A stretch of DNA of 64,000 bases, taken from contig CAZUBK010000003.1 in the NCBI GenBank assembly GCA_964618725.1, positions 81,018 to 145,017 on the forward strand, written 5' to 3'. Position numbers and translations under genes: made by a program. Shown in pieces: positions 42,631 to 46,446 of the stretch (position 1 is the stretch's first letter; each line of letters opens with the position of its first letter). The notes beneath the pieces are model-generated. The model did not search any database. It saw only the letters and a list, made by a program, of their open reading frames with translations, and was not told the DNA's origin. This DNA is from an uncultured Pseudomonadales bacterium (GTDB taxonomy: Bacteria; Patescibacteriota; Microgenomatia; UBA1400; Chazhemtobacteraceae).

Positions 42631-43062
42631 ATGACTACTTCTCTAAAAATCAATCGTCTCATCTTTTTCCTCAGTCTCCTTGGCGTCCTTATCGCCATCT
42701 ATGTTCTTCAAAGTTTTCTACGTGATGCCCCCATCATCTGCGTCAACTCAGGTTGTGAGCTCGTCCGTAAAAGCCCCGCCAGCTACATACTTAGTATCCC
42801 CGTTCCCGCCTTTGGTCTAATTGGTTACTCGCTCATTACCATCCTCTCATTTATACGAACAGTAAAAGATAGTCCCAAATTGCCGATAGCCATTCTTAGC
42901 ATCTCCATTTTCGGTGTTCTTTTTGTCTCCTGGTTTACCTACACCGAGTTCTTCATCATCAAGGCCTTCTGCACTTGGTGCCTCATTTCTGCTATAATTA
43001 TGGTTACTATCTTTCTTCTCTCACTTAGAAGTCTCCAATATAAAAATGAACCTAACCTCTGA
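42631..43062 (+). CDS. Vitamin K epoxide reductase (VKOR)-family membrane protein.
   Basis: A loop Cys pair is present in CVNSGCELV. The TM4 motif FCTWCLISA (CxxC) is present. Confidence 0.8.
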   Translation: MTTSLKINRLIFFLSLLGVLIAIYVLQSFLRDAPIICVNSGCELVRKSPASYILSIPVPAFGLIGYSLITILSFIRTVKDSPKLPIAILSISIFGVLFVSWFTYTEFFIIKAFCTWCLISAIIMVTIFLLSLRSLQYKNEPNL

Positions 43063-43675
43063 ATCAAAATTCCTCTTCGGTATTACTGCCGCCACCTTGG
43101 CAATTGTCGCCATTGGACTATTTGCCTTTTCTAATAAGGGCGCCACTCTTTCCTCTATCCCCACCCTCTCCCGTCAAGAATTAGTTCTCGGCGACTCCAC
43201 CTCTCGTGGCAATAAAGAGGCCGAACACTTCCTTGTCGAGTTCTCTGACTTCCAATGCCCCGCTTGTAAGGCCTTTAAGCCCGTTGTTGATCAATTGATC
43301 TCTCAATATGTTGACAAGCTCTCCTTCACCTATCGTCATTTCCCCCTCGATCAACACCCAGCCGCTCTTCCCGCCGCTATAGCCGCTGAGGCCGCCGCCA
43401 AACAAGGCAAGTTCTGGGAGATGTATGATCTGCTTTTTGAAAACCAAGAAACTCTTTCAGAGGAAACCGTCATCAAGCTAGCTGAGAACCTTCCACTTAA
43501 CATGGATCAATACAGAACCGACTCCGCTGCTGCCAAAGAAGAAGTCCTTCAAGACCGCTCTTACGGCCTCCAGATTGGCATCAACTCCACCCCCACCTTC
43601 TATCTTGACGGCAAGAAACTCATCCTCAACAACCCAGCTGACCTAAAAATTGCAGTCGATAAACTCTTTCAATAA
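43046..43675 (+). CDS. DsbA-like thioredoxin-fold disulfide oxidoreductase.
   Basis: The motif FSDFQCPACKAF (CPAC) is present. An N-terminal anchor is present. It overlaps the VKOR gene by 17 bp. Confidence 0.8.
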   Translation: MNLTSESKFLFGITAATLAIVAIGLFAFSNKGATLSSIPTLSRQELVLGDSTSRGNKEAEHFLVEFSDFQCPACKAFKPVVDQLISQYVDKLSFTYRHFPLDQHPAALPAAIAAEAAAKQGKFWEMYDLLFENQETLSEETVIKLAENLPLNMDQYRTDSAAAKEEVLQDRSYGLQIGINSTPTFYLDGKKLILNNPADLKIAVDKLFQ

Positions 43676-44752
43676 CTTACCCCCATCAACTTTTCGTCCA
43701 CTTTTCTCATCAGACTTCTAATTTCCTTCTTCACGTTGAAACTGCTGGCATGCTTCAAAACTCCAAGATATGAATCCATCGAAGCTAATAAAGATTCTTT
43801 CTCCATCATTCCAAGCTCATATCCTTCTACTTTATTTTTCAATTTTCGTAGCATCCTTATTTTGGTTTTAATCCTGACAATCTTGTGATGCGGAAATATC
43901 ACATACCCCAAAAAATCGATTCCCTGCGTATATTTCCTAATTGTTACCTTCCCAGGATGCAGATTAAGCCTTAATTTTTCTCGCAAGAAAACACCTACTT
44001 GCTCTTTCCACTCAATCAACTCTTCTTCTGAAGAAGACAACATAATAAAGTCATCAGTGTAGCGATAATAATATCGAACCCTAAGTTTGTGCTTAACAAA
44101 TTGATCCAACTCATTCATGTAAATATTGGCAAATAATTGTGAAGTCAGATTGCCAATTGGAATTCCCTGCCGAAACTTTTTACTCTCTCTCTCTCTCTCT
44201 CTCTCTTGCCAATCCATGACTGTTAACCACCTGCTCCAACAATCTCAAAACTTTTTCATCATTTATTTTCCTTTCCAAAATCGCCATCAAGATGTCTTGA
44301 TCCACACTTTGGAAGAACTTTTTGATATCACACTTAAGGGCAAAACAGACTCTGGTGTTGTTCGTACTCACTTTTCCTAATCCTGTACTTAAGGAAGAAA
44401 TCCCTTTATGAACTCCTTTCCCCATCCGACATGAAAAAGAGTTTGCCATAAAAGTGGAGTCAAATATTGGACTTAAGGTGCAAAATAAAGCGTGGTGTAG
44501 AACTCTGTCTCGTACCGTTGCCTTGTGAATTAACCTCTGTTTAGGATCCTTAATGTAAAATGGCACATATTTACCATGCGCATATCTACCTGCAAGTAAG
44601 TCCCTATGCAAAGCAAAAAGGTTCTCCTCAAGCCTGAATTCAAAACGCCTTACATCTTTTTTTCTCGTTTTCCCAATCTTAAATTGCTCCCACGCAGCCA
44701 GGAGACTCGGCAGAGAAGTCACTTTCTCGAATAAGTTCGTATATACTTTCAT
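43669..44752 (-). CDS. Diversity-generating-retroelement reverse transcriptase (Brt-like). It is interrupted by a frameshift inside a (CT)12 tract. Fragment 1 is 44180..44752 and fragment 2 is 43669..44217.
   Basis: The N-terminus MKVYTNLFEKVTSLPSLLAAWEQFKIGKTRKK...KQRLIHKATVRDRVLHHAL matches the start of DGR RTs. The downstream fragment carries GIPIGNLTSQLFANIYMNELD and the YxDD box RYTDDFIM. The 60 aa upstream of MKVY in the listed ORF overlap avd and are probably not coding. Confidence 0.85.
44183..44206. repeat. (CT)12 dinucleotide microsatellite inside the RT coding region (read as ...RERERE...).
   Basis: The tract ctctctctctctctctctctctct is visible directly. The two RT fragments end and begin within the same codon context. 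Inserting one CT unit, or deleting two, would fuse the frames. Confidence 0.8.
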
Positions 44753-44755
44753 CCT

Positions 44756-45106
44756 ATGAATGAGTTTGATCTTCCTATTTTCAAGAAAGTCTACGACCTC
44801 TACAAAGTTTTTCATAGCTATCGAAAAACCATACCCAAACAAGATCGTCATACCCTTTGGCAAAGAGCAGATACTATCATTCTCGACATGCTTGAAACAA
44901 TAATGACTGCTGTCAACCTCCCTAAAAACCACAAGCTTCCATTTTTGGAAAAAACCAACGCCAAACTAAGCATCTTGAAAATCTTGTTTAGACTCTCCTA
45001 CGAAACCAAGGTAATAGATGACCGAAAGTATCTCACCTTGCAAGAACACCTTAATGAAATAGGCAAAATGCTCGGTGGCTGGATTAAAGCCAGCCGAGCA
45101 ATCTAA
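44756..45106 (+). CDS. avd: DGR accessory variability determinant (Avd), a four-helix-bundle protein of the 23S rRNA-IVS family.
   Basis: The 116-aa protein has a C-terminus LNEIGKMLGGWIKASRAI that matches the Avd/IVS consensus (...VGRILGSWIARVNRK in BPP-1 bAvd). The N-terminus reads LPIFKKVYDLYKVF. It is on the opposite strand to the RT, with its start 3 bp from the RT start. Confidence 0.75.
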   Translation: MNEFDLPIFKKVYDLYKVFHSYRKTIPKQDRHTLWQRADTIILDMLETIMTAVNLPKNHKLPFLEKTNAKLSILKILFRLSYETKVIDDRKYLTLQEHLNEIGKMLGGWIKASRAI

Positions 45107-45113
45107 ACCTAAG

Positions 45114-45231
45114 AAGGAGACTTCCGGCGGGCAACGCCAAGGTCGGAGAGGCGGTTGGAATCCCAGTTGTTGTTGACGTTGACCTGACCCTCGTTGACGC
45201 CTACATTGCAGCGGTTGCCATCGGAGTCAAC
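45114..45231 (-). repeat. DGR template repeat (TR). The sense strand is the minus strand.
   Basis: It is ~118 bp and near-identical to 45546-45662. At all 13 mismatches the TR has T on the plus strand, which is A on the minus strand. It is rich in in-frame AAC codons on the minus strand (GTT on plus) and lies outside any ORF. Confidence 0.85.
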
Positions 45232-45324
45232 CTAATTTTTGCCTACTTCCATCCTGTATCACCGGAGGTCGATAAACTCTTCCTCTTGAATTTAATTTCG
45301 AAGCAAGTCCAAAAGACTACCTTC

Positions 45325-45365
45325 TGAGGGAGTAGACAAGCAGTTCCCTCCTTTCTTTTTCACTC
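45325..45365 (+). terminator. Possible hairpin plus T-tract, a plus-strand terminator candidate downstream of avd/TR.
   Basis: The sequence gagggag-tagacaagcagtt-ccctcc is followed by tttctttttcac. The stem is short (6 bp) and the loop is long. Confidence 0.3.
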
Positions 45366-45490
45366 TCTATTATGATCCGTAAATCACAATACTCTGGTCC
45401 TATTAAAGACAGTGGTTCTGCGAAACCAAAGCCGTACTCTGATTCACATCTGCAGAACAAATTCATAATACCAAATCAAAAAAGAAAGTC

Positions 45491-45512
45491 CCGCTTACAA
45501 TTGTAAGCGGGA
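45491..45512 (-). terminator. Perfect 22-bp palindrome hairpin about 35 bp downstream of the VR and target-gene stop. It is a candidate for the DGR target-recognition stem-loop, a minus-strand terminator, or both.
   Basis: cccgcttacaattgtaagcggg is its own reverse complement. On the minus strand it is followed by ACTTTCTTTTTTG. Confidence 0.55.
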
Positions 45513-45530
45513 CAAAAAAGAAACAAAAAA

Positions 45531-46367
45531 TCAAGAGGTCAAGCCAAGGAACTGCCGGCGGGCAACGCCAAGGCCGGAGAGGCGGCAGGAACCCCAGCTG
45601 AAGCTGACGTAGACCTGACCCTCGATGACGCCTACAACGCAGCGGTTGCCACCGGAGTCAACGTCACGGCAACGAAGATAGTTGCTGAACAACTCGCCGT
45701 GCCCTAAGGCCAAATAGCCCGCAGCCGCGTAGGCCAGCTCAACAACTAGCGAGACTTGGAATCCAGCCTCATCGACAGCCTTCTCTTGGTCAAGCCAAAT
45801 CATGTTGGTTGAGTCAGGGAGAGCACCAATGAGATAGTAGCCCGGTTCTGAGTAGTTAACCTCCGAAAAAAGCTCTCGTTCTTCCCGACGAAGATACCAA
45901 TTGCTTGGATACAGATAGCGTGGCGCTGCTTTTTCCCGAAGCTGAACCTGATTCAGTCTTGGTATCGCTGCCAAACATAAACCATCATCCCTAGCTTCTT
46001 CAAGACTACCCTCTCCGCACGGAACCAATCCGTACCGAGCAATCTCAATTTTAGAAAGGCGGATTCCCAGCTTGCTGGCCACCTCAATCCCAATTGCTTT
46101 CTTCCCCATGATCTTGGCAGCGCGTGCCCAGGTCACAGAAGAAGTAGAAATCCCCTTCCAGTGCGAGATCACATCACGCCTTTTGTTCGGATCATCAATC
46201 ATTCTCTGGAGATCATCCAACGTGATTCCCATCTCCTCAGCTCGCCGAAACCATTCGCTCAGCGTGCCAACTATCTGACTTGGAGATTTACCTTGGTTCG
46301 CGATATTCATCGCACACCTCTTCCTTTTTTGAGATATTTGTATCCCGAATGCGGGACTCAGTTGCAT
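45531..46367 (-). CDS. DGR target (variable) protein, 278 aa, with a C-terminal VR-encoded hypervariable patch. The fold is probably CLec/FGE-like.
   Basis: The VR falls in the last ~40 codons (...NRCVVGVIEGQVYVSFSWGSCRLSGLGVARRQF). TR AAC codons are in frame with VR codons TGC, AGC, TTC, AGC, TAC and ATC. I see no obvious signal peptide. Confidence 0.8.
   Translation of the reverse strand: MQLSPAFGIQISQKRKRCAMNIANQGKSPSQIVGTLSEWFRRAEEMGITLDDLQRMIDDPNKRRDVISHWKGISTSSVTWARAAKIMGKKAIGIEVASKLGIRLSKIEIARYGLVPCGEGSLEEARDDGLCLAAIPRLNQVQLREKAAPRYLYPSNWYLRREERELFSEVNYSEPGYYLIGALPDSTNMIWLDQEKAVDEAGFQVSLVVELAYAAAGYLALGHGELFSNYLRCRDVDSGGNRCVVGVIEGQVYVSFSWGSCRLSGLGVARRQFLGLTS
45546..45662 (-). repeat. 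DGR variable repeat (VR) within the 3' end of the target gene.
   Basis: It pairs with the TR at 45114-45231. There are 13 substitutions, all at TR adenines (7 A-to-G, 6 A-to-T in minus sense). The 3' end in minus sense is GC-rich (CCTTGGCGTTGCCCGCCGG), which resembles an IMH. It ends 15 bp before the TGA stop. Confidence 0.85.
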
Positions 46368-46446
46368 TAATGTGCCTGCCTAGTATACCAAAGGAACAAA
46401 CCAAAGTCAACTATAGGATCAACATCAGCCTCATATTTTCCCCTTT

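Follow-up and report, generated by a model that had tools for sequence, protein, structure and literature searches.

We analyzed a 64-kb stretch of DNA (the window), in which positions 43669 to 46410 hold the parts of a diversity-generating retroelement (DGR). These are a target gene that ends in a variable repeat (VR), a template repeat (TR), the accessory gene avd, and a reverse transcriptase (RT) gene that is divided between two open reading frames (ORFs). Read along the minus strand, the order is target with VR, a terminator-like hairpin, TR, avd (inverted), and RT. No rRNA or tRNA was found in the 64-kb window. The features are as follows.

43669-44217, minus strand: C-terminal RT ORF (182 aa, +1 frame) with GIPIGNLTSQLFAN, YTDD, and the thumb, from the ORF list, motifs, and a profile match
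44180-44752, minus strand: N-terminal RT ORF (190 aa, MKVYTN...LARERERERE and then a stop), encoding about half of the RT domain, from its start to the tract that immediately precedes GIPIGNLTSQ
44183-44206, minus strand: microsatellite in which the RT frameshift lies, (AG)12 on the coding strand and (CT)12 on the plus strand
44756-45106, plus strand: avd (accessory variability determinant, 116 aa), on the opposite strand to RT, TR, and target, from Pfam and NCBIfam profiles
45120-45231, minus strand: TR, noncoding, with 25 adenines and 8 AAC codons in the VR register
45232-45487, minus strand: spacer from the target terminator to the TR, presumed to contain the start of the TR-containing transcript
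45488-45513, minus strand: GC-rich hairpin with a stem of 11 bp and a loop of 4 nt, then TTTCTTTTTT; DNA fold of -12.7 kcal/mol, z of -6.8, flagged as terminator-like
45531-46310, minus strand: gene for the target (variable protein) of 259 aa; as a mechanically called ORF it runs to 46367 (278 aa)
45551-45662, minus strand: VR of 37 codons, ending 6 codons ahead of the target stop, with 14 A-templated differences from the TR
46382-46410, minus strand: promoter-like site upstream of the target gene (TTGACT-17-TATACT plus TG extension), a pattern match from a consensus scan with a putative function

Gene order, relatives, and target protein

The avd product scored above the cut-offs of both Pfam bAvd (PF22296; E 7.9e-18, 65.4 bits, cut-off 40) and NCBIfam DivGenRetAVD (NF033474; 89.7 bits, equivalog cut-off 80). 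A preliminary description of this DNA had recognized the Avd homolog while overlooking that it lies on the plus strand. The start codons of avd (ATG at 44756, plus strand) and RT (ATG at 44752, minus strand) stand head to head, 3 nt apart, and 14 nt separate the avd stop from the end of the TR. This layout, with the TR upstream of a reverse-strand avd that faces the RT gene, is architecture B3, which makes up 90% of the CPR DGR set (Wu et al. 2018, PMC5758913). Of 80 related Patescibacteria loci, nearly all had avd and RT arranged head to head in this manner.

CPR DGRs (architecture B3, PMC5758913; clade 2, PMC8144416) likewise have TR, inverted avd, and RT in this order and orientation, and they share the adenine-only mutation pattern described below; the window RT differs from theirs in being interrupted by (AG)12. 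Roux et al. 2021 (PMC8144416) defined clade 2 as restricted to Patescibacteria, with small targets that lack recognizable Pfam domains and transmembrane segments. The window target is likewise small, with neither a recognizable Pfam domain nor a transmembrane segment. In one scan of species-representative genomes, 567 RT relatives were confirmed, and identity to the RTs of dozens of Patescibacteria metagenome-assembled genomes (MAGs) was 45-56%. The two closest relatives (loci L083 and L085) have an RT 74% identical to that of the window, the same gene order, and homologous TRs. As a class, then, the element is ordinary: it is another example within a very large known group of DGRs and carries little weight alone.

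In a high-confidence predicted model, the VR region is part of a C-terminal FGE/C-type-lectin-fold domain of the target, with the variable residues lying on the C-type-lectin fold. Compared with Treponema denticola TvpA, an FGE-type DGR variable protein (PDB 2y3c), the target lacks an FGE-sulfatase Pfam match, differs in its N-terminal helical region, and has no lipoprotein or signal sequence evident to the eye. Only one version of its VR occurs in the protein collection. The hairpin begins 18 nt past the target stop codon and 38 nt downstream of the gapless repeat core, and a T-run follows it. It had been counted as a DGR component; the hairpin is real, but with its T-run it matches an intrinsic terminator of the target as well as it does a DGR cruciform, and it may serve as a terminator, as a homing hairpin of the DGR, or in both roles. 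A consensus scan found no promoter-like site on the minus strand of the spacer (45232-45487).

Template and variable repeats

TR and VR align without gaps over 112 nt (45120-45231 and 45551-45662, an offset of 431). They differ at 14 positions, each of which is T in the TR on the plus strand (A on the minus strand), and every other base is unchanged. With 25 A among the 112 positions, the chance that 14 of 14 mismatches would fall on A is about 1.9e-11. Read in the frame of ORF 45531-46367 (minus strand), all 14 occupy the first or second position of a codon, and the codons hit are AAC, AAT, GAT, GAC, or AAG. The TR itself lies within no ORF of at least 50 aa, and stops interrupt its reading frame just past the repeat. 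In the two closest relatives, the VR differences again fell on adenines (19/19 in L083 and 16/17 in L085).

The 3'-most difference, at 45123, is A in the TR and C in the VR. The same A-to-C change is present in the VRs of both closest relatives, so it looks like a fixed boundary difference of the IMH/IMH* type and not an outcome of mutagenesis. The putative IMH/IMH* region would be a GC-rich 3' stretch common to TR and VR, followed by divergence, and the A (TR) versus C (VR) difference is kept in all three orthologous elements. With 45123 set aside, 13 adenine-templated substitutions remain, recoding 10 codons within the last ~40 codons of the 259-aa target.

These results bear out the central claim of the preliminary description, a DGR with an adenine-specific TR-to-VR signature, which repeats, DGR-type RT, Avd, and C-type-lectin-fold target together confirm. 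Its placement of two near-identical repeats (45114-45231 and 45546-45662) also holds, but the gapless core is shorter, and homology reaches 45114/45546 only if a 1-nt indel is allowed. The absence of mismatches outside adenine positions, the position of the VR in the last ~40 codons of a minus-strand gene, the in-frame AAC codons of the template, and the separation of the template from any coding gene were all correctly described. Two counts need amendment: 13 differences, rightly placed on template A, become 14 (13 without 45123), and 23 template adenines become 25 in the TR core. The idea of recent or ongoing diversification goes further than the sequence shows: the 13 substituted adenines record past retrohoming only, and the RT is out of frame. 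There is essentially no chance that the repeats are an ordinary duplication or paralogous segment, a reading that accounts for the existence of a direct repeat and nothing else, whereas the 14 differences are confined to a single base in one of the copies (P about 2e-11), one copy is noncoding, RT and Avd adjoin the repeats, and orthologous loci show the same pattern; the adenine-only differences and their recurrence in L083 and L085 rule it out.

A reverse transcriptase split at a dinucleotide tract

The RT belongs to the DGR clade, with both IGNLTSQ (domain 4) and YTDD present, and it matched Pfam RVT_1 with an E value of 1.8e-23. Its best solved relative was a 328-aa reverse transcriptase (8ub7_A; E 1.5e-46), a far better match than group II intron (2e-22) or retron RTs. 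Judging from its length, PDB 8ub7, an entry named just "Reverse transcriptase," is probably the RT of Bordetella phage BPP-1. The alignment covers residues 3-324 of the repaired window protein, with IGxLTSQ and YxDD conserved. Other likenesses to the BPP-1 DGR (Brt, Avd, TR, Mtd) are an Avd of the same family and repeats that are GC-rich at the 3' end, followed by a hairpin. In contrast to BPP-1, the window element has its avd on the opposite strand and its TR upstream of avd, not between avd and RT; its target is not a tail fiber, and it appears chromosomal, flanked by housekeeping-type and not phage genes. The window RT also carries a 15-residue insertion that includes the repeat tract, just before the motif, where 8ub7 has a gap.

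We found no intact translatable RT gene in the element. The 190-aa and 182-aa ORFs are separated by a frameshift inside the (AG)12 tract at 44183-44206, so the DGR is not "complete" as had been claimed. The Brt-like RT with a YxDD box reported earlier does have these motifs, but the split was overlooked. Apart from the frameshift the gene shows no lesion, with both halves open and every catalytic motif kept. A single ORF is restored by adding one AG unit (361 aa) or removing two (357 aa). Because the RT is out of frame just upstream of GIPIGNLTSQ (RT domain 4), a full-length product requires a one-unit change in the DNA or slippage in expression, and the element may be off at present.

The tract is the sole dinucleotide run of at least 6 units in the 64-kb window. 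Whichever of the three frames is read, it encodes Arg-Glu repeats without a stop. Of 80 species-representative loci, 7 had a perfect (GA)n at this site of the RT; elsewhere in those loci (~510 kb) there were five dinucleotide runs of at least 6 units, none of them GA/AG, and 423 kb flanking the metagenome hits contained none. All seven species-representative tracts were in frame, in a sample ranked by full-length tblastn score and thus biased toward intact genes. Among 104 distinct metagenome loci with the tract, 19 were in frame, 47 were shifted by 1, and 38 were shifted by 2. Out-of-frame RT genes, each split into two ORFs, therefore numbered 85 (82%). The in-frame share of 18% compares with 33% expected under a neutral random walk (binomial P of 8e-4, with loci that are not independent), and in a wider sample it was about 20% for short tracts (16-19 nt) and longer ones alike.

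Frame state differs between close relatives, and tract length varies with it while the gene is otherwise intact; the tracts of one pair of loci at 95.7% identity measured 18 and 24 nt. Identical out-of-frame tract lengths, within identical flanks, were found in four pairs of metagenome loci whose members came from different datasets. The RT halves of 49 near-full-length out-of-frame relatives were open and conserved like in-frame genes, with ~50% identity to the query in each class. Adenine-biased TR/VR pairs were present at 36 of 47 out-of-frame loci, 14 of 16 in-frame loci with a tract, and 51 of 65 loci without one. For the window element, an independent Logan assembly also gave (CT)12 with both unique flanks, and the 190-aa product was called on a Logan contig as well (L001). 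Two Logan contigs of run SRR12113420 meet this tract, one ending and the other beginning at (AG)12.

A possible switch, recoding site, or lesion

By analogy with the Bordetella phage paradigm, a TR-containing RNA would be copied by the RT with Avd, adenines would be miscopied in the cDNA, and the cDNA would then replace the VR. We favor a view of the tract as a slipped-strand contingency locus, one that would toggle the RT, and so hypermutation, on and off, with this genome caught in the OFF state. Several observations point this way: no other long dinucleotide run occurs in the window, and the tract sits at the same RT site in relatives; all three frame states occur among loci, with both RT halves open and conserved; and out-of-frame loci have diversified VRs, while close relatives differ in frame. 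Positions 43669-46410 very probably represent a chromosomal DGR of the Patescibacteria (CPR) type and architecture B3, its RT out of frame at (AG)12; the reading of the tract that we prefer is an RT switch, which would here be OFF. As to the tract, we consider both slipped-strand switching and recoding plausible, though neither is proven.

Phase variation by simple sequence repeats (SSRs) is known in Haemophilus, Neisseria, and Campylobacter, and oipA of Helicobacter pylori is an SSR contingency locus switched by CT dinucleotide repeats. Like such loci, the window RT contains a perfect tract within an ORF, unusual for its surroundings, at which a one-unit change toggles the frame, and its relatives occupy all three frame states with the flanking coding sequence intact. 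The tract differs in lying in midgene and not near the 5' end. The switched gene would also be of another kind, the RT of a hypermutation system and not a surface structure or restriction-modification gene. Two features of the data constrain a switch. An in-frame share below 33% implies that simple on/off switching is insufficient without added selection for OFF, and identical out-of-frame lengths across datasets argue against very fast switching.

It is also possible, if unlikely, that the tract serves recoding and not DNA switching. A one-unit slip by RNA polymerase or the ribosome (-2 or +2) re-pairs perfectly, so that some full-length RT could come from any allele and the out-of-frame gene would be the normal low-expression state. 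Such recoding would fit the depletion of in-frame genes relative to one third, the reproducible out-of-frame lengths between datasets, and the diversified VRs still present in out-of-frame DGRs. In several relatives, hairpins with a TTCG loop and (CT)n(GA)n palindromes adjoin the tract and could stimulate slippage. However, no hairpin adjoins it in the window itself, a canonical slippery heptamer is absent, and the occurrence of both shift classes (47 and 38 loci), with close relatives differing, means that no single frameshift direction is conserved. To our knowledge, efficient transcriptional slippage is established for homopolymer runs and not for dinucleotide runs.

PCR and sequencing tend to stutter at dinucleotide repeats, and the frameshift could instead be a consensus error that conceals a true (AG)13 allele, leaving the DGR intact and constitutively active as the preliminary description assumed. 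One added unit does give a clean 361-aa RT, and the break of Logan contigs at the tract means that reads of differing length may exist. We nevertheless regard an error as quite improbable. The (CT)12 tract with both of its unique flanks is the same in two assemblies, and independent datasets repeat identical out-of-frame lengths at four pairs of loci; from these we conclude that the frameshift is real and not noise. Errors confined to long repeats would not produce the same in-frame share in tracts of 16-19 nt.

We give still less credence to the view that the interrupted RT is a decaying pseudogene, the DGR dead, and the VR a frozen relic. The frameshift would then be the sole lesion, with both halves open around all catalytic motifs and Avd, TR, and target intact. 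Differences between TR and VR at non-adenine positions, expected to build up after inactivation, number zero, and the halves of the 49 out-of-frame relatives are conserved like those of in-frame genes.

Beyond this locus, we propose tentatively, with somewhat more doubt than conviction, that a sizeable fraction of Patescibacteria DGR RTs carry a conserved perfect (GA)n just before RT domain 4 that leaves most natural populations with the gene out of frame. The tract could provide built-in stochastic control, by phase switching or slippage recoding, that confines hypermutation to a subpopulation or a low level; the window element would be an out-of-frame case. The DGR literature that we searched contained no mention of such RT tracts; the main CPR DGR paper (Paul et al. 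2017) lay outside that search and may already note them.

As far as we know, the regulation of DGR activity is poorly understood; RT activity left uncontrolled presumably carries a cost. A hypermutable tract gating a hypermutator would, if real, add a second layer of bet hedging over the first. It would also mean that DGR surveys based on gene calls systematically miss or mis-score tract-bearing elements. With 85 of 104 tract-bearing RT genes split into two ORFs, a pipeline that accepts an element only with an unbroken RT ORF or a full-length HMM hit will undercount CPR DGRs.

Repeat pair and components of the element

The locus comprises the following features.

45120-45231, minus strand: template repeat (TR), an ungapped 112-nt direct repeat with the VR at an offset of 431
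45551-45662, minus strand: variable repeat (VR), the second copy of that ungapped 112-nt repeat
44752-43669, minus strand: reverse transcriptase (RT) gene, from its ATG (MKVYTNLFEKV...); Pfam RVT_1, E = 1.8e-23
44183-44206, minus strand: (AG)12 tract on the coding strand, (CT)12 on the plus strand, with the RT frame break inside it
44756-45106, plus strand: avd (accessory variability determinant), 116 aa; NF033474, 89.7 bits (cutoff, 80); PF22296, 65.4 bits (cutoff, 40)
Start at 46310, minus strand: target gene, behind AAGGAAGAGG, most likely encoding 259 aa; the same start is called on the Logan contig
45488-45513: hairpin with an 11-bp stem (-12.7 kcal/mol, z = -6.8), followed by a T-run

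Within the gapless repeat, TR and VR differ at 14 of 112 nt, and in every case the upstream copy (45120-45231) has T on the plus strand, which is A on the minus strand; the VR carries G, T, or C there on the minus strand. Given 25 adenines among the 112 minus-strand bases of the TR, the probability that 14 random differences would all fall on A is ~1.9e-11. In the frame of the minus-strand open reading frame (ORF) that holds the VR (45531-46367), all 14 mismatches occupy codon position 1 or 2. The substituted TR codons are AAC, AAT, GAT, GAC, or AAG, and the resulting changes are N to V, I, Y, S, F, S, and C, D to G three times, and K to Q. The TR lies in no ORF, and its reading frame meets stop codons shortly beyond the repeat. 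At 45123, the 3'-most mismatch, the TR has A and the VR has C. The VRs of both nearest orthologous elements share this difference, and a fixed boundary difference of the IMH/IMH* type is a better reading of it than a mutagenic substitution. The preliminary description had claimed an adenine-only pattern with 13 differences and 23 template adenines. The pattern stands, the adenines number 25, and the figure of 13, one short of the mismatches in the gapless core, is correct for mutagenic substitutions once position 45123 is set aside.

The RT contains the motifs GIPIGNLTSQLFAN and YTDD. Against solved structures, its top match is a 328-aa reverse transcriptase (PDB chain 8ub7_A, E = 1.5e-46); the top-scoring group II intron RT reached E = 2e-22. 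The target has no match in Pfam or NCBIfam. An exhaustive profile-free search recovered ~200 remote homologs of similar size, and a word-based search found only one relative. A structure model of the target built from 50 homologs reached a pLDDT of 93.4 and a pTM of 0.83, and Foldseek, taken alone, gave weak matches. The palindromic hairpin that had been proposed as a component of the element is present and stable; with its T-run, it is equally compatible with an intrinsic terminator for the target gene.

The identity of the locus as a diversity-generating retroelement (DGR) is secure, and the element belongs to the DGR family within the CPR B3/clade 2 group, an ordinary and known class. The only defining feature of the family that it lacks is an intact RT ORF, which lowers the claim of present activity and leaves the claim of DGR identity where it was. 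The observation in the preliminary description was confirmed, and its interpretation was supported only in part.

Orientation of avd and surroundings of the locus

The profile matches also bear out the earlier assignment of an Avd, which had overlooked that the gene is on the plus strand. The ATG of avd is 3 nt from that of the RT on the opposite strand (44750-44758, cat cct atg), and the TR is located past the stop codon of avd. The promoter and ribosome-binding site of each gene must thus lie inside the other, and a TR transcript that reaches the RT would have to cross all of avd in antisense.

The same head-to-head avd was found in almost all of 80 related loci. These come from species-representative genomes, all but a few of which are labeled as Patescibacteria/CPR groups and the others differently. 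The TR-(avd)-RT architecture, B3, makes up 90% of the CPR set of Wu et al. 2018 (PMC5758913), and a Patescibacteria-restricted DGR clade whose targets lack recognizable domains was described by Roux et al. 2021 (PMC8144416). The closest relatives (three Logan contigs, RT 74% identical) share the gene order of the window, and their TR/VR differences fall on adenine in 19 of 19 and 16 of 17 cases. Judged by these gene orders, the plus-strand avd is not an anomaly.

Two repeats were considered as traces of rearrangement. A 16-nt inverted repeat (94% complementary) joins 44103-44118, where ATGAATGAGTTGGATC encodes MNELD in the RT, to 44756-44771, where ATGAATGAGTTTGATC encodes MNEFD at the start of avd. 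We dropped it as an inversion site, since inverted avd is the normal state of the clade and no inversion event is needed. An exact 14-nt direct repeat, GTCGATAAACTCTT (43655-43668 and 45268-45281), brackets RT, avd, and TR, and one copy forms the last codons of a DsbA-like gene. We rejected it as the target-site duplication of a mobile cassette: it has no counterpart in the closest relatives and is probably a chance match, of which we estimate that ~0.1 would be expected in 7 kb.

The RT and a DsbA-like thioredoxin gene (43046-43675) are convergent, and the stop codon of the RT extends into the 3' end of the latter, an overlap of 7 nt (43669-43675). A VKOR homolog (42631-43062) precedes the DsbA-like gene, such that a disulfide-bond-formation pair adjoins the DGR. 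There are no rRNA or tRNA genes in the 64-kb window, and homologs of PrkA pointed to no close organism. In the related locus L009 (~485-1900), a second divergent avd-RT pair lies in the same orientation upstream of a B3-type DGR; its avd is on the plus strand, and the product shares 27% identity with the Avd of the query. Two adjacent DGR-like cassettes, different in architecture, are thus present in that genome.

A dinucleotide tract in the RT gene

As assembled, the RT is not a single ORF. Translation proceeds from MKVYTN to LARERERERE and then a stop, and GIPIGNLTSQ onward is in the +1 frame. The break falls inside (AG)12, and the element as assembled is not complete, as it had been called. 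Adding one AG unit yields a clean RT of 361 aa, and removing two yields 357 aa. No other dinucleotide run of at least 6 units occurs in the 64-kb window, and in the alignment the tract sits in a 15-residue insertion relative to 8ub7. On either side of the tract, an independent Logan assembly of run SRR12113420 matches the window at 100% identity, and one of its contigs spans the full (CT)12 plus both flanks. The two contigs, L001 and L002, break at the tract, one ending at 44205 and the other starting at 44177, with a 29-nt overlap across (CT)12. The break fits branching or low k-mer support and proves nothing; that it could reflect heterogeneous tract length in the reads is only a hint. With a k of 31, which we take to be the Logan setting, the overlap is not cleanly that of a simple branch.

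A perfect (GA)n tract of 12 to 55 nt recurs directly before the GIPIGNLTSQ motif in DGR RT genes of Patescibacteria (among the matches listed, L012, L016, L018, L030, L040, L051, L078, and L086-L205), even at the same site in RTs only 45 to 56% identical (e.g., P0006 and P0026). It occurs in 7 of the 80 species-representative loci, the rest of which (~510 kb) contain only five other runs; the closest relatives have merely GGAGAGAGT at the site. All seven of these tracts are in frame; the full-length tblastn score by which this sample was ranked biases it toward intact genes. When metagenome contigs were scanned for (AG)8 followed, after 4 to 34 nt, by DNA encoding the IGNLTSQ motif, at least 120 stretches matched. 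Frame state at 104 distinct loci was assigned by comparing, in tblastn, the frame of the N-terminal half of the RT with that of the C-terminal half. Among these matches listed, 19 were in frame, 47 were shifted by 1, and 38 were shifted by 2, so that 85 of 104 RT genes were out of frame, and explicit translations bore these states out. In-frame genes make up less than one third (binomial P = 8e-4, with loci that are not independent), and their share is ~20% for short (16- to 19-nt) and medium tracts alike among the matches listed. On a neighbor-joining tree, tract presence was clustered but labile (18 changes versus 46 in shuffles), and close relatives differed in frame state.

Within the ~100 nt between the RT halves of several relatives, GC-rich TTCG-loop hairpins flank the tract, e.g., GGCCTTCGGCC, GGCGCTTCGCGCC, and CAGCCTTCGGCTG (L116, L119, L096, L122, L157, L189, L108, and L176); in L190, L109, L174, and L146, a (CT)n run before the tract creates a long (CT)n(GA)n palindrome in that interval. 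These arrangements suggest that the RT ORF of those relatives contains a structured element of RNA or DNA. The tract in the window has no such hairpin or palindrome.

Possible roles of the tract

We favor a reading in which the tract would be a slipped-strand contingency locus that toggles the RT between on and off; on this reading, the genome is in its OFF state. The main rival is slippage during expression, by which out-of-frame alleles would give a little RT. Whatever the frame, the tract specifies Arg-Glu repeats, and it re-pairs perfectly after a one-unit slip, so such alleles might still yield some enzyme; this would account for both the depletion of in-frame genes and the stable out-of-frame lengths. 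Against it, the shifts have no conserved direction and the site has no known slippery motif.

Pseudogene decay is less likely than the favored on/off switch. Both halves of the out-of-frame genes are open, and their similarity to the query is about that of in-frame genes. Adenine-biased TR/VR pairs accompany 36 of the 47 out-of-frame loci with enough flank (among the matches listed), 14 of 16 in-frame tract-bearing loci, and 51 of 65 tract-free loci. By these comparisons, the out-of-frame genes are not decaying. An error in the consensus at the tract is also less likely: in four pairs of loci whose flanks match exactly and whose members come from different datasets, both members have an out-of-frame tract of the same length. 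The lengths are thus not assembly noise.

Full-text literature searches, PMC5758913, and PMC8144416 yielded no description of a microsatellite or frameshift in DGR RT genes; Paul et al. 2017 falls outside this scope, and prior notice is possible. The recurrent and mostly out-of-frame tract is the regularity that raises the locus above a routine DGR.

Three further explanations were rejected. A split RT, with a second polypeptide restarting upstream of the tract, is possible in the window, where an ATG 11 nt upstream is in the right frame for the second half; among the matches listed, the open downstream frame has a start codon in only 35 of 86 out-of-frame relatives (ATG in 20 of 86), which rejects it as a general mechanism. 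A programmed frameshift in one direction is not supported, since shifts by 1 and by 2 are both common and the frame state changes between close relatives. Collapse of long repeats during assembly does not fit the ~20% in-frame share of even the 16- to 19-nt tracts among the matches listed or the lengths reproduced across datasets. Long (CT)n runs also adjoin related DGR loci outside the RT gene, at or near the contig ends of L076 (position 1) and L077 (position 52); they comprise 28 and 9 units, respectively, and the contigs may have broken at a microsatellite there too.
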